Shown here piece after piece: positions 3,151-35,071 of a DNA stretch of 40,095 nucleotides. Origin of the DNA: a virus. Lineage: Duplodnaviria; Heunggongvirae; Uroviricota; Caudoviricetes. A program made the position numbers and the translations under genes. The DNA is taken from positions 1-40,095 of the IMG/VR virus record IMGVR_UViG_2740892121_000006, one strand, 5' to 3'. How positions within the stretch are numbered: the stretch's first letter is position 1; the number at the start of each line of letters is the position of its first letter. The notes under the pieces are model-generated. The model was not told the origin of the DNA and ran no database searches. It saw only the letters and a program-made list of their open reading frames with translations.

Positions 3151-5613
3151 TCAATTCCCTGTTAATTGCAAAACTTGCTCTTCCAGCTTTTTAACCCTGC
3201 GTCTCATCATCGCAGATTCCAGAATCAGAGCCTCTTCATAACGGATACCGTAACATTCACCAGCCTCGACGGCTTCGCGTACCAGAACCTTTGTCTGTAT
3301 AAGTGGGTAAACTCCTGCAGAATGCTCTTCTTCCGTCACATCCCTGTATTCTGCCGGGGTCTCATTCCACTTGTCATAACAGATAAATGCCAGTCGTGAC
3401 ACATCTATGCCTTCATTCTGAAATACACTGATAACATGCTGCGCAACTGCACCAAAGTGCCATCTTGCTCCGTCTTTACCTTTCACTTCGATCCTGTCAA
3501 GGTACTGGTATGAAACCCATTCCACTCTTTCCCATGCGTCCAGTATTTTCTCATCAATAACCTCTGGAGCAGTCTTGAAACGCGCATCGGACAGCACCGT
3601 AAACGCTGACTGGGTAAATCCCCCCGACCATGCACGACCAGCCAACCCAAGAGAATAAGTATTCGTTTTCGATGGTGTCATGGCTGAATCAGAAAACTGT
3701 ATATATTCTGAATTTCCAGTAGATATTCGAATATTTCCATTTATTAGCGACATAGTGCCTTTAGTATTATCACTATTGAATAATTTCAATTGCGAACTTA
3801 TACCGCCTCCCACAGCCAGAGATACATCGCCTTCAGCAAGCATTCTGAATTTATCTGCAGAAACAAGCGTCTGGTTAGCAAGGTTAAAATATTTAACCCA
3901 CCATTCAAAACGCCCTGACATAGTCCCAACGTACTGACCAAGCGCAGGGACGTGAACAACATTGCTATTTGTAGTGCCGTCTATACTGGAAATACCAGTC
4001 ACCGCTGATGCAGAACTCAGAATATTATTTCTGTCACCCGGATGTTTAATTTCAACAAAGTTCCTGATACACCCTTCCTCGAAGGTAACCACGCCGGAAG
4101 AACTATACATGGGGAATATTGACGCATAATTACTGCGTGCAGCATCTAAGAAACGAATGGTTGTAGATGTCTGCAGATCTCCTGATTCATTTTTCCCATC
4201 ACACCCAGTCATTAGAATATTACTGGCAATATTATTATTTCCCTGAACGGTGACGCCGTGCGCCTGCTTTGCGTCCGATTCAGAGTAATCAACCAGCACA
4301 TTCGAAATCAGGTTACCAGTCCCCTTGCCAACAACTACTGCGGCGTATTTTGGGTTGTTAGCCATTACACTGCTAATGATATTATTCGTTGGTGCAGTTT
4401 CCGTCTCAGTTCCATTGTAAACAACGTGCTGACACTCTTCACCAATAACATTGCTGACAATGTTATATTTTGCTGCTGTTTTAAGTTCCACTGCACCAAA
4501 CTGAGGATAATTTCTGGCTATCACACCATCAATTAGCGTATTTTGCGATGAATCAAAAAGCACACAACCTGCTTTTTTATTATTTGCGAACCCTAAATAC
4601 TCTCCTCTTATATCTCTAACAATGTAACCTGACGGAATACCATTATTCGGATAAGCGATCAAGCTAAATCCTGTTCCTCGCGTATTTGTAAATCTGATAT
4701 TTTTAACCGATACATCATGGCCACCTGAAAATGACACCTGGTGTCCCTGCACACTATCATCTGATTTATTTCCCATAATTGTTAGCGTACTAAGCATGCC
4801 ACCATCGGGCATGTTAAAAACCAGATGATTACCATCTCTGTCATACTGTTTTATCGTTCCCCCACCTGTTCCGTACAAGCCACAACGTGAAAGAGAAACT
4901 AAAGATGTATTGAATACCCCTTCCGGAACAAAAACACTGCTAAACGAATGTAATGATTTTGTAAAAGCATCCTTGTTATCATTTAAGATTCCATTTTGAG
5001 CTCCAAAATCCTTAATGCTGACACCATCACGCATCTTATCCTGGAACGTTCTGTATACCGCTCCAGAACCATACTGAATAAACCAACCAAAACCACCAAT
5101 AACTCCGGCGATTGCAGCATCGACATAATTACGCATTGAGCGATTATTTACAGCGTCCTGCTCAAGTGATGGATCGGCAAGGTTAGATATTCTGTTTTGC
5201 TTTGCATCGTAATATTTTGCAAGCAAAGATGGTTTCATCAATGCACGTCTGAACCACCCAAAACATCGCTGGATCAGCATCGTCAGGTAGTCAAATGCAT
5301 CCTCATGAACTTCGGGGAAAAATTTTCCCTGATTGCGAAGATCAGTCTCCTGCACCACATCAAGCACACGCTCTATCGTGATTCGCCAGCCAGCAGCAAG
5401 CGGCGACGGAAGAACCACTGCACCGCCACTATAAGTTCCCGCCCCTGTTACCGTATAACCAGCATCCAGCACTAGTTTTGTAACGTTACCGTTAAGGTCA
5501 GACACCTGAACAACCAGGTCGGATTTTTTGAAAATACGGAAGGTATACGGAAATGATGTCGTAACGCCGTTACCTGTGTATTCGTTGTGGTCAACTTCGG
5601 TTGAGACCGTCAT
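3151..5613 (-). CDS. Tailspike / tail fibre with T7-fibre-like N-terminal anchor and C-terminal S74 intramolecular chaperone
   Basis: N-terminus YTGNGVTTSFPYTFRIF resembles phage tail-fibre N-domain; long Gly/Asn/Ser-rich central region (beta-helix-like); C-terminus SDARFK...GARWHFGAVAQHV matches endosialidase-chaperone (peptidase S74) pattern; SD GGAG. Confidence 0.8.
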   Translation of the reverse strand: MTVSTEVDHNEYTGNGVTTSFPYTFRIFKKSDLVVQVSDLNGNVTKLVLDAGYTVTGAGTYSGGAVVLPSPLAAGWRITIERVLDVVQETDLRNQGKFFPEVHEDAFDYLTMLIQRCFGWFRRALMKPSLLAKYYDAKQNRISNLADPSLEQDAVNNRSMRNYVDAAIAGVIGGFGWFIQYGSGAVYRTFQDKMRDGVSIKDFGAQNGILNDNKDAFTKSLHSFSSVFVPEGVFNTSLVSLSRCGLYGTGGGTIKQYDRDGNHLVFNMPDGGMLSTLTIMGNKSDDSVQGHQVSFSGGHDVSVKNIRFTNTRGTGFSLIAYPNNGIPSGYIVRDIRGEYLGFANNKKAGCVLFDSSQNTLIDGVIARNYPQFGAVELKTAAKYNIVSNVIGEECQHVVYNGTETETAPTNNIISSVMANNPKYAAVVVGKGTGNLISNVLVDYSESDAKQAHGVTVQGNNNIASNILMTGCDGKNESGDLQTSTTIRFLDAARSNYASIFPMYSSSGVVTFEEGCIRNFVEIKHPGDRNNILSSASAVTGISSIDGTTNSNVVHVPALGQYVGTMSGRFEWWVKYFNLANQTLVSADKFRMLAEGDVSLAVGGGISSQLKLFNSDNTKGTMSLINGNIRISTGNSEYIQFSDSAMTPSKTNTYSLGLAGRAWSGGFTQSAFTVLSDARFKTAPEVIDEKILDAWERVEWVSYQYLDRIEVKGKDGARWHFGAVAQHVISVFQNEGIDVSRLAFICYDKWNETPAEYRDVTEEEHSAGVYPLIQTKVLVREAVEAGECYGIRYEEALILESAMMRRRVKKLEEQVLQLTGN

Positions 5614-5789: not shown

Positions 5790-5809
5790 ATTGCATGGAG
5801 AAGATTAAG

Positions 5810-6067
5810 ATGCAGCAGTATCACTATCCACTGGAAGAGGGATTTACCGAAAGGATTCACACGCCGGGAGGCGTCAGGTCACTGGTGGAGGGATCGCACT
5901 TGATGAAATTACTCCGGGATCTCGATAAGGATGGATTTAATGTCGATGGCCCACTTGCCGAACTGACTGCACTGATTAACTACGTCACCAGCTCACAGAT
6001 GTCTATGCAGGATCTGCAAACACATCTCGACTATTGTGCCGAACAATTACGAAAGCAAACCACATAA
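5810..6067 (+). CDS. Small antirepressor-like protein (stand-alone copy of Ant C-terminal domain), LexA-controlled
   Basis: About 40 percent identity by eye to the C-terminal 65 aa of the Ant protein at 7534-8226; start at second ATG (SD GGAG 9 nt upstream); track start 5795 also possible. Confidence 0.55.
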   Translation: MQQYHYPLEEGFTERIHTPGGVRSLVEGSHLMKLLRDLDKDGFNVDGPLAELTALINYVTSSQMSMQDLQTHLDYCAEQLRKQTT

Positions 6068-6090
6068 AGAAAAGGCCGCAAGAGCGGCCA
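6068..6090. terminator. Hairpin terminator between convergent genes
   Basis: Stem GGCCGC / GCGGCC (6074-6089) with loop AAGA; A-run on plus side gives T-run for minus-strand transcript ending gene B. Confidence 0.5.
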
Positions 6091-6597
6091 TTAACAGTCG
6101 AAAAATTCTGGGTCCCACAAACTTGCATCGCGCGGCATGGATTCTAACTTTTTCAGCCGCAAAATTCTGTCACACTCGACAACTAATTTTTGCTTCTGCT
6201 CGTCAATTTCTACTGTCTTATGTGCTGGTTCATCCCAATAATCCAGAAGGAAGGCATGGCGTTCAGATGTGACCAGATAAATCACATACACGTCACTGGT
6301 TGGGATCTTTTTATGCTTGTTAGTGGTCTTGTCTTTCTTCCCAGACGCCCAGTTTTTCCAGCATTGTTCCGTACCGCTCTCACCAAACTTGTCAGTATAG
6401 TTTCCGATGTTTACATGAACGTGGCGTATGTGATATTCCAGCATCTCTTTCGGTGGATCCCGAAACAGAGTGTCCTTTCCGAAATCCTTATGATGACCGT
6501 AGCGCCAGTGATCTATGAACGCGTTTTTGATAGGTATTAGCTCAGGGTCCTTCCCAAAAATTCCAGGGTGAACCAACCCCTGGAATTTATTCGGCAT
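6091..6597 (-). CDS. Hypothetical protein (gene B of two-gene moron operon)
   Basis: 168 aa from ATG 6597 (SD AGGAG), start overlaps last codons of gene A by 11 nt; His-rich segments GHHKDFGKD, HIRHVHV; no family recognised; track ORF extends to 6660. Confidence 0.5.
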   Translation of the reverse strand: MPNKFQGLVHPGIFGKDPELIPIKNAFIDHWRYGHHKDFGKDTLFRDPPKEMLEYHIRHVHVNIGNYTDKFGESGTEQCWKNWASGKKDKTTNKHKKIPTSDVYVIYLVTSERHAFLLDYWDEPAHKTVEIDEQKQKLVVECDRILRLKKLESMPRDASLWDPEFFDC

Positions 6598-7114
6598 CGT
6601 CGTAGAGCTCCTGAGCCATATCTTCAGCAGTGCGTGCAAACATCCTGCGCGAGATTGCATGGGATTTCTCTACGGACATCTTTGGGACCTCATGCATAAC
6701 AAGTTGATGAGTTTTCTCATCAACTTGAAGTGGCTTGTATAAACGTTGCCACCTTTCGTTAATTTTATCCTTAAAGCCAGCGAAACCACTTTCCTGACTC
6801 TTGTATCCAAAATGAGATAAAGCCAAATTCCTTTCCATTTCATTCCTAATGTACTCAGCAAGGTTGCAGTGGAATACTTCCCCTTGTTTTTTTAGGCATG
6901 CTTCATGGTCTGTAACACTGTGACGGCTCTCATATAAGTAAATGCGATAGGAATTTTTATTATCCTCTTCTTCATAATTTCTAATCGCATCAGCAGTTGC
7001 CATAGCTGCAGCGTAAGCGGCTGCTTCAATCACCATCTCTTGCTCTTTTTCTTTTTCAGGCCTTTTCAAGGCAAAGCGTCTATGCCTCATCGCTGTAACT
7101 CTCTTCGTGTTCAT
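6587..7114 (-). CDS. Hypothetical protein (gene A of two-gene moron operon)
   Basis: 175 aa from ATG 7114 (G-rich SD); basic N-terminus, largely helical, acidic C-terminus; no family recognised; track start TTG 7126. Confidence 0.5.
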   Translation of the reverse strand: MNTKRVTAMRHRRFALKRPEKEKEQEMVIEAAAYAAAMATADAIRNYEEEDNKNSYRIYLYESRHSVTDHEACLKKQGEVFHCNLAEYIRNEMERNLALSHFGYKSQESGFAGFKDKINERWQRLYKPLQVDEKTHQLVMHEVPKMSVEKSHAISRRMFARTAEDMAQELYDDAE

Positions 7115-7125
7115 GGGCACCCCCA

Positions 7126-7142
7126 ACTACCTTTAGGGTAAA
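7126..7142. promoter_or_regulatory. Degenerate copy of the 17-bp palindrome
   Basis: ACTACCTTTAGGGTAAA, one mismatch per arm; overlaps the translation-initiation region of gene A. Confidence 0.35.
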
Positions 7143-7250
7143 CATTCTATCGAAAGTATACGCTCACTGGCAAAAAAATAGGCAGGTATTTTCTGAAATG
7201 GGATCAATCAAACCACATAGGGTTGAAATAACGTGAGTTATGCATTTATT

Positions 7251-7267
7251 ATTACCTTTACGGTAAA
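7251..7267. promoter_or_regulatory. 17-bp palindrome (candidate operator) upstream of ant
   Basis: ATTACCTTTACGGTAAA; preceded by TTGAAA-N17-TTATTA promoter-like hexamers on plus strand. Confidence 0.45.
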
Positions 7268-7359
7268 TTTACATTGCACTCCTCTTGTGCCATAGTAATC
7301 AGGCACTGGCAAAATCCAGTGCCGGGATTGGTCTCCCGGATTACTACAGAGGCACATAT

Positions 7360-7379
7360 GCCGCATAAGCGGTTTTTTT
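7360..7379 (+). terminator. Intrinsic terminator-like hairpin plus U-run inside the ant leader
   Basis: GCCGC-ATAA-GCGG followed by TTTTTTT; two further hairpins just upstream (7302-7323, 7322-7339). Confidence 0.4.
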
Positions 7380-7533
7380 ATGTGTAAAGCGCACCTATTC
7401 TATGGTGGGCTGTGTGGGGGCACCGAAAGGTGCGCCGGGTTCCTTTGTAGCCGGTAAGACCAACTCTGCACAGTTCACCACCATCTGATTGGTCTCAGCG
7501 GTGGTGATTAACCTAACTACAAAGGTGATCGCC

Positions 7534-8226
7534 ATGAATACCAAACCTTCCATCTTTTCCTTTGAGTCATCCTGCCAGATCCGTATGTTCATGATTGACG
7601 GAGAACCTTGGTTTGTCACCAAAGATGTGTGCAATGCTTTGAATATTGATGTTACACAAGCGAGAAAACTTGATAAAAAAGGCTGGAACAAAAAGGGGCT
7701 GTATTCAATACAGACCCCTGGTGGAATACAAGAACTATCCATCGTTTCAGAATCAGGTCTCTACATCCTTATTCTGCGTTGCAAAGAGGCAATGACAGAG
7801 GGAACGAGAGCATTCAGATTTCTTGAATGGGTTACAGGTGAGGTTCTTCCTCAGATCCGCCGCACCGGAAGTTACATTAAAAACTCGCTCCCGCAGGAAG
7901 AACGCATAAAGATGGTTGCCGACCAGGTAGCCAACGCCACAGCATCAGCAGTGATGCAGGCAATGAAGATAGAGAACAAAACCTACAGTGCCCCACTGAA
8001 GCCCGGCTACCGCAGCCTGATTCACTCGCCGTCTGGTGTTCTCGGCCTGACGGAGAACTCACTGCTGATGAATCTGCTGAACCAGTTACAGGACGACGGG
8101 CACGACGTATCGGGCGCGGCGGCGGAGCTGACCACCATGTTCTGCTACATCGTTGGTGTGAGCAAATGCCTGCGTGATATCCAGACGCACGCGGAGTACA
8201 TCAACGACAAAGCAGGGTTCTTCTGA
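7534..8226 (+). CDS. Antirepressor (Bro-N/AntA-type N-terminal domain plus C-terminal domain)
   Basis: N-terminus IRMFMIDGEPWFVTKDVCNALNI...GLYILILR typical of Bro-N/Ant domain; ATG 7534 with SD AAAGGTGA; track ORF begins at TTG 7489. Confidence 0.7.
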   Translation: MNTKPSIFSFESSCQIRMFMIDGEPWFVTKDVCNALNIDVTQARKLDKKGWNKKGLYSIQTPGGIQELSIVSESGLYILILRCKEAMTEGTRAFRFLEWVTGEVLPQIRRTGSYIKNSLPQEERIKMVADQVANATASAVMQAMKIENKTYSAPLKPGYRSLIHSPSGVLGLTENSLLMNLLNQLQDDGHDVSGAAAELTTMFCYIVGVSKCLRDIQTHAEYINDKAGFF

Positions 8227-8309
8227 CGGAGGCGGCACAGGGATGTGCCTACAATTATCAATAATTGTTTACACTCGTTGCAGTTAAAAGCATTATACTC
8301 ATGTTTAAA

Positions 8310-8326
8310 ATTACCCGATTGGTAAA
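8310..8326. promoter_or_regulatory. 17-bp palindrome (candidate operator)
   Basis: ATTACCCGATTGGTAAA just downstream of a TATACT -10-like hexamer and 20 nt before ATG 8347. Confidence 0.45.
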
Positions 8327-8346
8327 GTCGATTGGTTGAGGTTCAT

Positions 8347-8673
8347 ATGAGCAGAAGATATGTCAAGGAGCTGGCTATAGAGTCTGGCACCCCTTTGGGT
8401 ATCGTTCCTGGCTCCAACTATGCCAAGGCTTTAAACCGAGACTCTGTCGTCAAAGTTATATCAAGAGACATGAATATGGTCGGAGACGATCTCAGACGGT
8501 CAGAAAATCGTGTTTATGCTGAATATATAGTAAAGAACGGAAAAAAAATTGCAGCGCCTGCTGGCGGAAAATGGGCAATAGTGACAGGGAAAAACTCAAA
8601 TGCAAGAGGAAAACCAGAAGCTAAAGGAATGTCCTTCGACAAATATGCAAAAATCTATTGGGCAACCAAGTGA
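8347..8673 (+). CDS. Hypothetical protein (moron operon, first gene)
   Basis: 108 aa from ATG 8347 with SD GAGGT; basic, no recognised motif. Confidence 0.45.
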   Translation: MSRRYVKELAIESGTPLGIVPGSNYAKALNRDSVVKVISRDMNMVGDDLRRSENRVYAEYIVKNGKKIAAPAGGKWAIVTGKNSNARGKPEAKGMSFDKYAKIYWATK

Positions 8674-9148
8674 TAACGAAGAAACTGAGTTCGAGGAAGT
8701 TGAGGAAGGGCTAAGTAACGAGATCATTCAACACCCAGATGCCTTCACAAGAGTTCTTGATCGCCCTGAAATTCAGGAGATAGTTGTCGCTCACCATGCG
8801 TTTCAGGGTCCGCTTCCTCCCCCCTATCTGCTTCGCGGGTATCAGGATATTTTACCTGATGCCCCCGAACGCATCTTCCAGCTGACGGAGAAGGAGTTTG
8901 CTCACCGCCAGAAAATGGAGGAAAAGGCACTTGACGGGGCTATTAATAGAGATAAACGTGGGCAGTGGTTTGGCCTGAGTGCAACTATTTTTACAGTAGC
9001 TTGTGCAACATTATTAGGTTTAACAGGTCATGAAGTTCTAGCTGGCACAGTGATCGGTACAGTTGTTGCAGTGGCTGGTATTTTCGTTCTTAGACAAAAA
9101 CCAAGCATCAAGAAGAAATCTGAAGACAACAAACCTGAAGAAAAGTAA
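8600..9148 (+). CDS. Membrane protein, acidic N-terminal domain plus two C-terminal TM helices (DUF2335-like by recollection)
   Basis: C-terminal hydrophobic helices FGLSATIFTVACATLLGL and TVIGTVVAVAGIFVL; start ambiguous (ATG 8600 or 8645); overlaps upstream gene. Confidence 0.45.
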   Translation: MQEENQKLKECPSTNMQKSIGQPSDNEETEFEEVEEGLSNEIIQHPDAFTRVLDRPEIQEIVVAHHAFQGPLPPPYLLRGYQDILPDAPERIFQLTEKEFAHRQKMEEKALDGAINRDKRGQWFGLSATIFTVACATLLGLTGHEVLAGTVIGTVVAVAGIFVLRQKPSIKKKSEDNKPEEK

Positions 9149-9439: not shown

Positions 9440-9889
9440 CTACTTGCGAAATCTTTCTTTACCCTTCCAGCCAGTAGATGTTAGTTCAGGATGAATGGTT
9501 CCCAATATAAAGCCAACCATAGCGGAGCGAGGATCTTCTATTTTATCCGTTAATTCTTCGGCATAACTCACAGGCAACCAAGCAACAAGATCACCAATCC
9601 TCAGCTTTGGTCCTTTGCTGTAAGATGAATCGGCAATAACAAAAAATCCACCATCAGCTGAGCACACCTTCAGCATTGCCCTTTGTCTTCCAGAATCTAG
9701 CAAAACTGGCTGTTCCCCACTTGGACCAGGTATGATGATGGCTGGCATTGGTTTATTGGCTGAAAGGCTTGTGTCAAGATACTTACACGCATACTCAAAA
9801 GCTGAAAAGTTATCCTTAAAGATAAGAGGTTGAATTTTATTGCTAACCTCCTTACCACCGATTAATCTGTTGATCATCTTCTTGAACAT
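9440..9889 (-). CDS. Hypothetical protein
   Basis: 149 aa from ATG 9889 with SD AGGTGA; track start is GTG 9898; no family recognised. Confidence 0.45.
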   Translation of the reverse strand: MFKKMINRLIGGKEVSNKIQPLIFKDNFSAFEYACKYLDTSLSANKPMPAIIIPGPSGEQPVLLDSGRQRAMLKVCSADGGFFVIADSSYSKGPKLRIGDLVAWLPVSYAEELTDKIEDPRSAMVGFILGTIHPELTSTGWKGKERFRK

Positions 9890-9901
9890 AAAGGTCACCT
9901 A

Positions 9902-10342
9902 ATGATTAAGCCGATGCACGCTATTACAGCTACCGTTTTGTTTATCCTACCAATTTTTTCGTTTGCAAACGACATATGTTTTAAGAATTTAATAAATGAG
10001 GATATGTGTGCACATGCAAACAAAATTGCATCAGAAGCAGGAAAGTCACTTCCCATAAAATTGAATGATAATATGTCTATTGTTTCAATAAATGCAATAC
10101 TAAACAAACTTTTAGTTGTAGCGCATCTTAATTACAACAACAGCTATTTATCAAAAGTTTATAACGGTGATGTAACCTTAGAAAATAAATTAAAGAGTGT
10201 AATGCGAAATTATTCAAAATCGAGCATTTGCTCCAACAGGCAAATGAAAGCATTTATTCACCTTGGCGGAGAGATTGAATATAGGTATGTATTTAGTGAT
10301 GGCAATATATTTGATACATACGCCATCACTAATTGTGAATAG
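9902..10342 (+). CDS. Secreted Cys-containing protein of unknown function (AT-rich moron)
   Basis: Signal peptide ending FSFA; 4 Cys; markedly AT-rich coding sequence; SD AAGGT; start only 13 bp from the divergent start at 9889. Confidence 0.45.
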   Translation: MIKPMHAITATVLFILPIFSFANDICFKNLINEDMCAHANKIASEAGKSLPIKLNDNMSIVSINAILNKLLVVAHLNYNNSYLSKVYNGDVTLENKLKSVMRNYSKSSICSNRQMKAFIHLGGEIEYRYVFSDGNIFDTYAITNCE

Positions 10343-13300
10343 CTATTTCATCTGCTCTTCAACTTTATTTAGTAACGGTGATATCGCCCACAGGTTCTGA
10401 AAAGGTAGCATTTTACGGACCGCGTGGGTTTGCTGGCTGTCAAATTCTCCGTTAAGTACACCATTCGCAACCGTCGCGGCATCACCGCCAAGATCAAAGG
10501 TAGGACCAAGTAAAGCACCAATAGCATTACGACTCTGAAACCTTGATACCGGAGGCGCACCAAACATCGCGCCAAGACCAAACCTACCGCCGCTTATGTT
10601 CTCAACGGTATTCAGCGGCTCAGAGAGCCAGCCAAGCATTCCGCCCCGGTCGATCCCCTCTTTCACAAGGTTATTCCAGCTGTAGTCGATATCGCGACCG
10701 CTTAACTTCTGTTTCATCATATAGACCATTGAGCCAAGCGCAATCGTGCCAAGCGCACCAAGATAGAATGCAGCATCGCCCTGCTGGATACCAGATACTA
10801 GCACCCTGTTATGCTGTGCGAAGATAAACGTTTTGAACTGCGTGATCATCTTCCAGCCTTCTTTACTAAAAAACAGCGGTGTATCACCTACGCCAGGCGT
10901 TACAATCACTGAGTCTACATCTTTCAGCACTGCAGACTGGAAAATCTCTCTAGCGAAACGGTCATCCCACAGATGACTATGCCCGGTTAACAGCCCGTCC
11001 ATATCCTCTCCGTGCTTCCCGAATTGCTCCCCGATTCGGCGCAGAACATCTTCATTGATGCCGACCTGTGCCATCTTCCGCATTTCACTTTTGGAGAGCG
11101 TGCCACCAGCAGAAACTTGGCGAGCCGCGTCAAGTATCCTCGACTGCACTATCATCCCGGACCATGATTTAAGTGCGCTGTTCCACTGATTCATCAGCGT
11201 CCAGTTACCGAATTTCTGCGTCATCCAGTTCAGACCTCGCTCAGCGGCGCTTCTCCGGCTATAGGGGTCAGTAAGATCCGCTATAGCCTTTGTACGCGTA
11301 GACAGGACATAATCAAGCCCAACGGCCATTTCTCGCAAATCCCTGGTTGCAATTTTCACTGAGTCCATATTTTTAAGCATGCTTACCATTGGTCCGAGAG
11401 ATTTTCTCAGGCCATGCTGCATCATCGGTCGCATCAGATCAGTTGCAGCGGAGACAGTCATTCCACCAAGCAAACGGAGGAAGTTAATATTCCTAGCAAC
11501 TCGCCCGGCACGAACAAAGAAACTGCGTGGATCTTGAGGTGCACCGTAAGTACCAAGCAGTCGATCACGCATAGCCGTAATATCCCTAATATCAGCCTCC
11601 CGTTGCTTCTCAAGAACTGCACGTCGTTTAGGTGTTTTAGCCTCTTTTATTAGCCGGGTATATTCCTCACTAACCTGACGGATTTGCTCCCCCATATCTT
11701 TACGGCCAAACTGCGCAGTCAGCTCAATTTCTGGTGCCACCTGCCGGAGATAACTTTCCATGATGTAGTTAACATCTGATTCAAGAAAATCTTCTATACG
11801 CTCATCAGGAATAAGCAGCGTTCTGCTTTTAGTGAAACCAGCCCGACCAACGAGTTTCTCTGGGATAATATCGGCTGGTACAAGCCCGGAAGGTGCGCCT
11901 ATTATTTTATTCACGATCTCGTCAGCAGCGTCCTCTGCTTCCTCTCGGGATAGAGGCTCCATCTGCTTCAGTGCTCGTTCGCGGCTTGCATTCAGCCTTG
12001 TGGTTGAATTTGCCCGTTTTTGCAGTCGGCGAAGCTCAGAACGATATTTCCGTGGATTATCCAGCAACTCCATATGGCGCTGATAGACAGGAAGCTCACT
12101 CTTTGCCTGCGCTATATCATCAAGGCGTGTTTTAAGGTCAGAGCTTTCTTTCATCATTCTTGCCTGAAGTTTTTCTGATGAAGTCTCGGCCAACTCTTTT
12201 TCTATTCTTGTAAGACGCGCCTGTGTGTCAGTCTCCTGAGATATAAGCTTATTTCGTTTATCCAGTTCTTCCATGAGTAGAATTTTTTTACCAGACCATT
12301 TCTCCGCTTCAGCGATTTCACTAGCGAGAGCATCAGCGCGCGGTGCCGATTCCTCTGCAGTTTTTAGCAATGAATTTATCCTTTCAATTCGCTGACCTGC
12401 TTTGTCAGCACCTTTGGCACTAATCCCTTGTATCCAGTTGGCAATTCGCCCTCTGAATTCAGTGCGGTCGGAAAGTATCTTATCGAACTTATAAATGCGG
12501 GGAAGATAACTTTTCGCCGTCACGACATCGATATCCTCAGGAAGGATCCCCAGTTCCTGCATACGGGCTTTTGTGGTCTCGAAAATGGGGCGGATTCTGG
12601 CGGCTGCTTGTGAAACCTCAGGAATATCACTCTGATCACCACGGCGCATAGCCATGCCAACAGCTTCATTGAAATCAATAAAGTTCATCCTCTTCACGCC
12701 GCGGGCGCTAACAGATTTGCTGTACTGCTGGTAAGCATCACGAGTGGCTTCCATCTGCTTATAAAGCATGGCGTCGTATTGCTTAATCTTAGTCTCGACT
12801 GCCGTAAACGTAGCCAACCCCTCATCATTTTTGGCGAAGAAATAGTTATTTTCGGCAAGCTGCTGGTTAATCTGACGGGAGACAAGAGATGGTGATTGAG
12901 CCAAGCGGCCAGCAGGAGTGACACTCAACGTTTTGTTAGCAAGTCCAAGTCCAGCGAGCTGTTCCTGATCGAGTGTGGTATTGAAAACCTGAGCTGCACC
13001 AATGCTTTGAGGAGAATCCATACCTCGCAAATGATTACCTACTGAGTTAACCACTGCCTCGCGCGCGCTAGGTCCAGCAAGTAGCTGTGCACCAGCACCA
13101 AGGATCCCACCAACGAGAGCATCAACAACAACGTTCGATACGCTCTCCATCGGTGAGCGAGCTTCCTGAGTGGCCTGTAATGCGGCTTCTGATACTCCCC
13201 CACCAGCAGCATTCGCCAGGGCAAAACGCCCTGCCGTCTCAGCAATACTTCCTCCACGCGCTACCGCCCCTACAGGGATAAACATTGCAGCCACATTAAC

Positions 13301-26122: not shown

Positions 26123-26199
26123 GTGGCATTAGCTCAGTTGGACAGAGCAACCGCCTTCTAAGCGGTTGGTCGCAGGTTCGAATCCTGCATGCCACGCCA
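26123..26199 (+). tRNA. tRNA-Arg (anticodon UCU, reads AGA)
   Basis: Cloverleaf read by eye: acceptor GTGGCAT/ATGCCAC, D-arm AGCTCAGTTGGACAGAGC, anticodon loop CUUCUAA, T-arm GCAGGTTCGAATCCTGC, discriminator G, encoded CCA. Confidence 0.85.
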
Positions 26200-33966: not shown

Positions 33967-34197
33967 TCATGAGTAGAAGAAGTATGCCAGTTCTGCTTTT
34001 GAGCGCAGCCATTGTCTTGTTTTACAGGCTTTAAAAAGCCCATTCATCAATACTTTACCTGGCATTTTGCGCTTACCTGTTAAGTGAGTCTGGATATAGT
34101 GACTCGTCGTTCCGGCTTCCTGTGCGAAGGCTTCACGCTCATCCGGAGTAAGTGCAAGCCAGTGCTTTTTGAAATCGAAATGTCCGTTATCGCTCAT
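33967..34197 (-). CDS. Cro-like DNA-binding protein
   Basis: 76 aa, HTH-like segment, divergent from repressor gene across an operator-bearing 154-bp intergenic region. Confidence 0.6.
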   Translation of the reverse strand: MSDNGHFDFKKHWLALTPDEREAFAQEAGTTSHYIQTHLTGKRKMPGKVLMNGLFKACKTRQWLRSKAELAYFFYS

Positions 34198-34243
34198 AGC
34201 TATTGCCTGATATTTATTTCAGATAATAAATATTCACCCATAA

Positions 34244-34297
34244 GGTAACAAAAATCAAGGATAGTTACCCATGAGGTGCATTTACCTGTTGGGTAAT
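34244..34297. promoter_or_regulatory. Operator cluster in the cI-cro intergenic region
   Basis: TTTACCTGTTGGGTAAT (34281-34297) plus inverted half-sites GGTAAC-N14-GTTACC (34244-34269) overlapping a minus-strand TTGATT-N17-GAATAT promoter-like element. Confidence 0.5.
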
Positions 34298-34351: not shown

Positions 34352-34936
34352 ATGAAAAGTATCCAGGACGTCCGCAGGCAAAATCTCAACGACTTGATCG
34401 ACCGTGAATTCAATGGTGTTCAGACGCGGATGGCAGAAAAACTTGGAACTCAGGCAAATCTGGTAAACCGCTGGGCTCTTGGCAAGAAGGTTATCGGCGA
34501 CCAGGTTGCGCGAAAAATTGAAGCTGCCGCCAATAAACCACGTAACTGGCTTGATATCGATCGCTCGCTTTCTCAGGAAGGTTTTCAGCCTGTCGGCCCA
34601 AGCGACATTGGTCAGCTGGCGGCTCACAACCTGGAACGCTGGATGAGCGAAAGCCGCGACCTTTCAACTCAGGGAAAACTTCACCGCGCATCCGGCGTCG
34701 CCCAGGTGACAATCAGCCGCCTGTTAAACAATGAGGTCAGTGTTTCCATTTCCACCCTGGAGAATGTTGCATCAGCATTCGGGCGTCACGGCTATGAATT
34801 ACTGATTCACCCGCACGACCCTGCGACCATCAACTATGACCGCTCGCGCTACGCATTGTTACCCGAAACCGAGAAAGCAAAGATCGAAAGTTACATTGAA
34901 TTTGTCATCAACCAGAACGAAAAAAACAAACAATAA
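34352..34936 (+). CDS. CI-like repressor with two tandem HTH (XRE-type) domains, no S24 peptidase domain
   Basis: HTH-like segments at residues about 25-65 and 105-150; no Ala-Gly/Ser-Lys protease signature; divergent from cro-like gene. Confidence 0.65.
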   Translation: MKSIQDVRRQNLNDLIDREFNGVQTRMAEKLGTQANLVNRWALGKKVIGDQVARKIEAAANKPRNWLDIDRSLSQEGFQPVGPSDIGQLAAHNLERWMSESRDLSTQGKLHRASGVAQVTISRLLNNEVSVSISTLENVASAFGRHGYELLIHPHDPATINYDRSRYALLPETEKAKIESYIEFVINQNEKNKQ

Positions 34937-34992: not shown

Positions 34993-35009
34993 ATTACCTA
35001 ATGGGTAAT
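34993..35009. promoter_or_regulatory. 17-bp palindrome (candidate operator) upstream of -35
   Basis: ATTACCTAATGGGTAAT, perfect arms. Confidence 0.5.
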
Positions 35010-35027: not shown

Positions 35028-35056
35028 TTGACATCAAACCAAATACGCATAATTAT
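35028..35056 (+). promoter_or_regulatory. PL-like sigma70 promoter
   Basis: TTGACA (35028-35033), 17-bp spacer, AATTAT (35051-35056); flanked by two palindrome sites. Confidence 0.5.
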
Positions 35057-35071
35057 TACCTCAACGGTAAC
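35055..35071. promoter_or_regulatory. 17-bp palindrome (candidate operator) overlapping -10/+1
   Basis: ATTACCTCAACGGTAAC. Confidence 0.5.

Follow-up and report, generated by a model that had tools for sequence, protein, structure and literature searches.

YafO of Escherichia coli inhibits translation through mRNA cleavage and is neutralized by YafN, which is encoded upstream of it (PMC2814082), and it has been counted among the toxin families with a BECR fold (PMC11980606). We compared with this and other described systems a pair of genes, here termed A and B, from a 40,095-nucleotide stretch of viral DNA (Caudoviricetes; IMG/VR record IMGVR_UViG_2740892121_000006, positions 1 to 40,095), the whole of which is referred to as the window. 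A first-pass annotation, made from the sequence without database searches, had proposed A and B as an undescribed two-gene system whose products match no recognizable family. The analysis points to a type II toxin-antitoxin module that is carried as a self-contained cassette in a phiV10/epsilon15-like prophage, an assignment that we consider quite likely. All 58 E. coli genomes having B already carry the RefSeq name "type II toxin-antitoxin system YafO family toxin" for it, so the pair can no longer be called undescribed, and only A is without a name or family; the label on B could not be traced to an NCBIfam model. The statement that neither product matches any family was mistaken for B (YafO); the sole family match of A was phrog_9503, of unknown function.

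Gene A (6587-7114, minus strand; ATG at 7114, stop at 6587) encodes a candidate antitoxin of 175 amino acids, and gene B (6091-6597, minus strand; ATG at 6597, stop at 6091) a protein of 168 amino acids, a divergent YafO-family toxin with a predicted RelE/HigB fold that is presumed to be an mRNA endoribonuclease. The coordinates, the minus-strand operon, and the 11-nucleotide overlap of the two frames (ATGCCGAATAA, minus strand) were read from the sequence exactly as the first-pass annotation had given them. A consensus scan placed a putative sigma-70-like promoter of the operon at 7144-7173 (minus strand; TTGCCA, 18-nucleotide spacer, TAGAAT; 10 of 12 consensus matches), with the −10-like hexamer TAGAAT at 7149-7144 on the minus strand; the promoter hexamers are kept in related loci of group 1. 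A Shine-Dalgarno sequence for A, GGGGG, is found at 7124-7120 (minus strand), and that for B, GGAG, at 6608-6611 (minus strand), within the last codons of A and 10 nucleotides before the B ATG. The hairpin terminator reported to follow B is present: a GC-rich hairpin with a T-run (GGCCGCTCTTGCGGCC TTTTCTTT; 6074-6089, read on the minus strand from 6089 to 6074) begins right at the B stop codon and marks the left cassette edge.

The assignment of B was evaluated at the level of family profiles and of the predicted fold. In an hhalign comparison, the B family matched the profile of the canonical YafO family with an E value of 7.7e-5 over 109 columns, covering YafO positions 16-131 of 134, whereas a pairwise BLASTP alignment of B with YafO gave merely an E value of 0.002 over 54 amino acids. 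The Pfam model PF13957 (YafO_toxin; gathering score 25 bits) was matched by 11 of 15 B-family members at E ≤ 10. Four B relatives reached the 25-bit threshold, namely L053 (33.1 bits, model positions 2-99 of 101), the second copy (paralogue) in E. coli EC24 (26.3 bits), P0005, which is 67% identical to B (25.4 bits), and a Serratia relative (25.3 bits). A joint alignment revealed the motifs FG(K/R)D, xHxH, TSD..YLxY, and PxAH as common to the B family and YafO; the columns that are invariant or nearly so in both families include F27, G34, F39, G40, D42, H61, T100, S101, D102, Y107, and H126, and the His, Arg, Tyr, and Asp positions common to YafO are invariant throughout the B family. The His-rich motifs and the VYVIYLV...LLDYW strands that had been pointed out in B are present and conserved in its relatives.

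An AlphaFold2 model of B calculated from the family alignment (predicted local distance difference test score, pLDDT, 92; predicted template modeling score, pTM, 0.87) showed a RelE-like (BECR) fold resembling that of RelE/HigB toxins. The first impression of a faint RelE/HigB likeness was thus borne out by both the profile link to YafO and the fold. Against PDB sequences, the B profile gave a single match, to a designed helical repeat protein, which was spurious, and no YafO-family structure is present in the PDB; a search of the B fold against viral structures (BFVD) returned nothing at E ≤ 0.001, and a PHROGs scan assigned A and B to families of unknown function only. As judged from profiles and modeled fold, B belongs to the RelE/ParE (BECR-fold) superfamily and, within it, to the YafO branch, of which it is a divergent representative.

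The partner A combines a basic N-terminus, a long helix, a variable middle, and an acidic C-terminus. Its AlphaFold model (pLDDT 60, pTM 0.20) is mostly helical or disordered, with a long N-terminal helix, a low-confidence middle, and two better-defined helices at residues 148-172. Many antitoxins are largely disordered. The two helices belong to a conserved C-terminal module (residues 139-175, VMHEVPKMSVEKSHAISRRMFARTAEDMAQELYDDAE; 6590-6700, minus strand) that has the highest pLDDT within A (~80) and is the putative toxin-binding part. These last 37 residues, which end in ELYDDAE, are nearly invariant in homologues and recur on proteins that otherwise, over 100-150 residues, are related neither to A nor to one another. 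When the A profile was searched against 1.84 billion representative proteins, only 25 clusters were retrieved; all of them bear the tail, none has a Pfam domain above the curated threshold, and among them the variable part occurs in many mutually unrelated versions. No DNA-binding domain was detected in A or its relatives by Pfam-type scans, the model of A being of low confidence. Every database record seen lists gene A as "hypothetical"; an annotation as partner of the YafO-like toxin could be given to it.

The two genes are conserved together. In IMG/VR viral contigs, Klebsiella, Serratia, metagenomes, and E. coli, an upstream same-strand partner open reading frame (ORF) accompanied the B relative at 51 of 51 loci (30 distinct pairs), overlapping the toxin gene by 11 or 14 nucleotides or, at one locus, separated from it by a 5-nucleotide gap. 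The co-occurrence in related prophages that the first-pass annotation had left to be checked was therefore found without exception. The same arrangement was seen in four further contigs, both genes were present in the sampled rows of the 58 B-carrying E. coli genomes, and a scan of species-representative genomes added one more locus only, in Serratia aquatilis.

Tail and toxin vary in concert. In a gapless alignment, the tail occurs in three flavors, ELYDDAE, ASFDGPE, and EEFDVFE, which match three toxin subgroups. In 435 pairwise comparisons, toxin identity correlated with tail identity at a Spearman coefficient of 0.78 and with identity of the rest of A at 0.31; where toxins were at least 90% identical, the tails were 96% identical, while the rest of A averaged 55% with a minimum of 27%. 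The tail thus tracks the toxin while the body is swapped, as expected if the former is the toxin-binding element and the latter exchangeable. At the boundary between the variable part and the conserved module, gene A contains a perfect 12-bp inverted repeat with a 4-nucleotide spacer (6700-6727), of which ~0.004 would be expected by estimate for a 1.5-kb stretch. The A variant of phage EC.W1-9 loses its homology to the window at 6701/6702, exactly at this repeat, which may mark a hot spot of recombination or be a quasi-palindrome that has been corrected.

Taken together, four features make up the standard signature of a type II module: the gene order, the overlap, a patchy distribution, and a disordered partner whose C-terminal module is conserved. 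In such a module, B would arrest growth by cleaving mRNA and thereby blocking translation, in analogy to E. coli YafO. A would act as the cognate antitoxin, with the two short helices of its last 37 residues binding and neutralizing B and with a remainder that appears poorly structured and exchanged among unrelated sequence types. As the start codon and Shine-Dalgarno sequence of B lie in the last codons of A and a hairpin follows the B AUG, B is probably translated mainly by ribosomes finishing A; this coupling would keep the antitoxin in excess. Transcription would start at the sigma-70-like promoter and would be governed by the prophage repressor through a palindromic site rather than by the antitoxin. 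Phage exclusion, prophage retention, and a lytic-cycle function are all candidate roles of the pair.

The hairpin is perfect over 11 bp (AAAUUCCAGGG, 9-nucleotide loop, CCCUGGAAUUU; 6558-6588, minus strand), starts 9 nucleotides after the B AUG, and is a possible translational-coupling element. The region has a local folding energy of −34.6 kcal/mol (z −4.1). In the closest toxin group (seven distinct sequences), 88% of the pair cells form pairs, and two pairs show compensatory changes, in which conservative codon changes in the 5' arm match synonymous ones in the 3' arm; the observed score was reached by only 3 of 500 shuffles. A function as internal terminator was rejected because the U-run is not conserved among relatives, and translational coupling is for this reason preferred. 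We infer a lineage-specific device that ties translation of B to ribosomes finishing A.

A number of observations weigh against the toxin-antitoxin assignment. B itself had no Pfam match at E ≤ 1 and none to PF13957 at E ≤ 10, and so stays below the 25-bit gathering score; neither B nor any of its relatives had an NCBIfam match, and the hhalign probability for the B family versus YafO was only 62%. With 168 versus 132 amino acids, B exceeds YafO by 36 residues and has an insertion of ~30 residues and a C-terminal extension, and its activity may differ accordingly from that of YafO, the ribosome dependence of which is itself disputed (PMC8546651). A had no relative in Pfam, NCBIfam, or the PDB (profile versus PDB, all E ≥ 1), and a kinship of its acidic tail with the YafN C-terminus (ELYDDAE and EEFDVFE versus DDDFNDFKE) was rejected as unsupported at an hhalign probability of 0.1%. 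The co-variation of tail and toxin could come from physical linkage alone, as the module abuts and overlaps the toxin gene, and the conservation of the tail is partly forced by the Shine-Dalgarno sequence and start codon of B. The hairpin at the B start was found in the closest toxin group only and was not found in two more distant ones. Finally, PADLOC (PADLOC-DB v2) did not recognize the pair: B had no match, and A gave weak, inconsistent matches to cyclase, Cmr1, and Csx1 models (E values 3e-4 to 3.5e-3) that were taken as noise.

The promoter region carries an operator-like palindrome (TTACCCTAAAGGTAG, 7127-7141) with one mismatch to TTACC-N5-GGTAA. It lies 2 nucleotides downstream of the −10 hexamer and ahead of the Shine-Dalgarno sequence of A; the first-pass annotation had rightly noticed a palindrome at the initiation region of A, which is located 13 nucleotides upstream of the ATG and not over it. 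A second copy (TTACCTTTACGGTAA, 7252-7266) lies at the right cassette edge, beside the −35 hexamer of the divergently oriented isrK/C4/Bro promoter; phiV10, too, has this copy at its empty site. With up to one mismatch, the motif occurs 15 times in the 40-kb window (sites starting at 5486, 5718, 7127, 7252, 8311, 25786, 28913, 28931, 31933, 31995, 33897, 34234, 34282, 34994, and 35056) versus 0.74 expected, and none of 100 shuffles came near this number. The sites cluster at the cro-cI intergenic region, a PL-like promoter, and promoters of accessory genes. One (34234-34248) falls into the spacer of the promoter of the cro-like gene (33967-34197), another (34282-34296) into the 154-bp cro-cI intergenic region, which has a third site with two mismatches at ~34265, and two (34994-35008 and 35056-35070) surround the PL-like promoter just downstream of the gene for a 194-amino-acid helix-turn-helix (HTH; cI-like) repressor (34352-34936). 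The PL-like promoter is arranged like the A-B promoter, its palindrome beginning right where the −10 hexamer ends.

The palindrome lies at most 90 nucleotides upstream of the antitoxin start at 19 of 30 distinct loci, and at most 260 nucleotides upstream at 27 of 30; at distant antitoxin loci with otherwise unrelated flanks it directly follows a −10-like hexamer. A role as antitoxin autoregulation site was considered and rejected, because the motif is phage-wide and constant while the N-terminal parts of the antitoxins differ. Since the antitoxin bodies vary and the palindrome does not, the binder is most likely a phage regulator, probably the repressor, and not the antitoxin. Judged by their positions, the 15 palindromes are probably the operator set of the 194-amino-acid HTH repressor, which suggests that the operon is under the control of the prophage repressor and not of the antitoxin. 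With such control, the lysogen would keep the operon repressed, at least in part, and loss of immunity or an infection would turn it on, which tempers the idea of a constitutive defense. No description of the TTACC-N5-GGTAA palindrome was found in the paper on Uetakevirus regulation PMC9782041.

The operon resides in a cassette (moron; 6068-7261) within a variable slot of phiV10/epsilon15-like (Uetakevirus) prophages. The flanks of the window match phiV10, TL-2011b, and other Uetakevirus phages, and blastn alignments showed that the flanks common to phiV10 and TL-2011b stop at 6067/6089 and resume at 7262/7246. In place of 6068-7261, phiV10 has 41 bp and TL-2011b unrelated cargo DNA. By this replacement the pair is recognized as a discrete cassette that occupies a variable slot, with its own terminator at one end and the palindrome copy at the other, and toxin-antitoxin-type cargo beside the tailspike gene, as envisaged in the first-pass annotation, is supported. 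The GC content of the cassette (0.41-0.46) is not distinct from that of its neighbors. The region is 97-99% identical to E. coli chromosomal prophages and phage EC.W1-9, and of 5426 complete E. coli genomes, 58 contain B, in each case in the chromosome.

The proposed location between two antirepressor genes is correct on the right, where 7534-8226 encodes a Bro-N antirepressor. On the left, the 90-amino-acid ORF 5795-6067 (plus strand), with which the A-B operon is convergent, is similar to epsilon15 p19 and shows 42% identity over 78 amino acids to the C-terminal part of the Bro-N antirepressor only; it is a free-standing copy of the Bro C-terminal domain, not a full antirepressor.

Among the other explanations, the most serious takes B as a RelE-fold ribonuclease (RNase) of the phage's own lytic program, serving host translation shut-off or RNA processing, and A as its timing inhibitor or chaperone, both silent in the lysogen. 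The phage-wide palindrome right after the −10 hexamer of the A-B promoter speaks for it, as with this PL-like geometry the operon would be expected to be repressed in the lysogen and expressed once induction or infection has occurred, and as the operator position is kept in distant lineages. The operator proximal to A is mismatched and stands alone here, so repression may leak; a general mRNA-cleaving toxin would also harm phage transcripts, and the type II signature of the locus is what a toxin-antitoxin pair would be expected to show. We therefore regard a lytic-program RNase as unlikely. That the pair is a decayed remnant, its toxicity lost and its genes hitch-hiking as cargo, would fit the failure of B to reach the Pfam threshold of its own family and the occurrence of the pair in phage EC.W1-9, from sewage water, without obvious harm. 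Both reading frames are intact at every locus examined, though, the positions common to YafO are invariant in the B family as described above, and the overlap and C-terminal module are kept down to 41% toxin identity, which makes inactivity very unlikely.

An undescribed two-gene system unrelated to known families, for instance a new exclusion or abortive-infection mechanism, would account for an A without family, for the lack of a PADLOC model for either protein, and for the absence of a viral structure like B; given that B is tied to YafO_toxin by profiles and to RelE/HigB by fold and is named in RefSeq, such a system is highly improbable. Least credible of all is a role of A and B as virion or assembly components linked to the tailspike, which we can hardly entertain: only the position beside the tailspike gene speaks for it, while the characterized phage phiV10 does without the cassette, B has a RelE fold, and the operon has its own promoter and terminator and converges with ORF 5795-6067. 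The type II toxin-antitoxin module is therefore retained as the preferred reading. A more specific version of it, in which the swappable middle of A is a sensor domain, each version recognizing a different trigger, for instance a protein from a rival phage or a satellite, and then releasing the YafO-like RNase, would make the pair a repressor-gated abortive-infection or competition module of swappable specificity; as it stands, we regard this version as rather unlikely. If it were true, an operon within the operator network of the repressor would fire only when immunity collapses or during infection, and A would represent a new antitoxin family that leaves the control of transcription to the phage.

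The surroundings of the cassette hold further features. Right of it, upstream of the Bro-N antirepressor gene, Rfam models identified an isrK Hfq-binding RNA (7303-7379, plus strand, 74.7 bits) and a C4 antisense RNA (7398-7485, plus strand, 78.6 bits) in tandem; the distal palindrome is directly adjoined by a promoter-like site (7268-7296), and 7360-7373 forms a terminator. We take this isrK/C4/Bro arrangement to resemble the immI layout of P1/P7. In related prophages, the slot right of the Bro gene contains a second, distant YafO-like toxin gene (L001 8821-9366 in E. coli EC24; L005 5354-6053 in phage TL-2011b), whose product is 31-32% identical to B and reaches 26.3 bits to PF13957. It is preceded by a 59-amino-acid ORF ending in ENYEFVCVAE that seems to be a minimal antitoxin of this type. 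We had considered the second RefSeq "YafO family toxin" label in EC24 to be a mis-annotated DUF2335 gene; this was rejected, as EC24 and TL-2011b have a genuine YafO-like gene. The corresponding slot of the window (8251-9147) holds a 113-amino-acid ORF and a DUF2335 membrane protein instead.

The product of the tailspike gene (3151-5613, minus strand) has a right-handed beta-helix region and, at its C-terminus, an intramolecular chaperone domain (Peptidase_S74). As a host-range module would be expected to do, the tailspike differs in sequence between prophages that are nearly identical elsewhere (EC24, EC.W1-9). The region of ~9440-10400, within which the GC content drops to 0.32-0.33 near 9800-10400, comprises two ORFs without Pfam match (9440-9898, minus strand, 152 amino acids; 9902-10342, plus strand, 146 amino acids with a hydrophobic N-terminus) and may be another foreign cargo cassette. 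A tRNA gene (26123-26196, plus strand, Rfam 73.3 bits) is located between the structural and terminase genes, and a tRNA-Arg is annotated at the equivalent place in the EC24 prophage.

Were it confirmed, the pair would extend the YafO toxin family, which is small and poorly understood, by a branch borne on phages. It would also define a new antitoxin family, in which a short conserved neutralizing tail is joined to freely exchanged bodies, and provide an example of a toxin-antitoxin operon apparently controlled by a prophage repressor and not by its own antitoxin; in all other respects it is a type II module of the ordinary sort, carried by a prophage. In the sources searched, no description of the antitoxin family or of its regulation was found.

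Among described systems, E. coli yafNO comes closest to A-B in having the antitoxin gene upstream of the toxin gene and in a toxin that has motifs in common with B over nearly the full YafO length, so that translation inhibition via mRNA cleavage is, by analogy, the expected activity of B. YafN is of the Phd/YefM type, to which A is unrelated, and yafNO forms part of the chromosomal dinB operon, whereas A-B lies in a prophage cassette with a phage operator-like site at its promoter. With an antitoxin unrelated to YafN, an enlarged toxin that stays below the family threshold, and the cassette context, A-B is not an orthologue of yafNO. The RelE/HigB-type toxins, for example Vibrio cholerae HigB2 (5mje), Mycobacterium tuberculosis HigB1 (7nbu), and E. 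coli HigB, RelE, and YafQ, have the fold predicted for B, but are only 7-17% identical to it, and none of their Pfam models matches B. In HigB modules, the toxin gene comes first, opposite to the A-B order, and the antitoxins of RelE/HigB-type systems have HTH or ribbon-helix-helix DNA-binding domains, none of which was detected in A.

Two further parallels concern architecture and control. Phage P1 has a C1-repressor regulon with an immI region composed of a C4 antisense RNA and an antirepressor; as in the window, many copies of one operator are scattered over the P1 genome, including accessory genes, and a C4 antisense RNA precedes an antirepressor gene. In the window, an isrK-like RNA stands with the C4 RNA upstream of the Bro-type antirepressor gene, next to the cassette. 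The presumed operator of the window is a symmetric 15-bp palindrome, unlike that of P1, and its phage is an epsilon15-like podovirus unrelated to P1, whose own toxin-antitoxin module, phd-doc, is autoregulated and of a different family from A-B. Mix-and-match antitoxins are a general principle for type II systems on prophages and plasmids, and like these mobile, patchily distributed modules A-B joins a conserved, putatively neutralizing segment to interchangeable domains; it differs from them in that the exchangeable part of A has no recognizable DNA-binding domain and that control is apparently exerted via a phage-wide operator.

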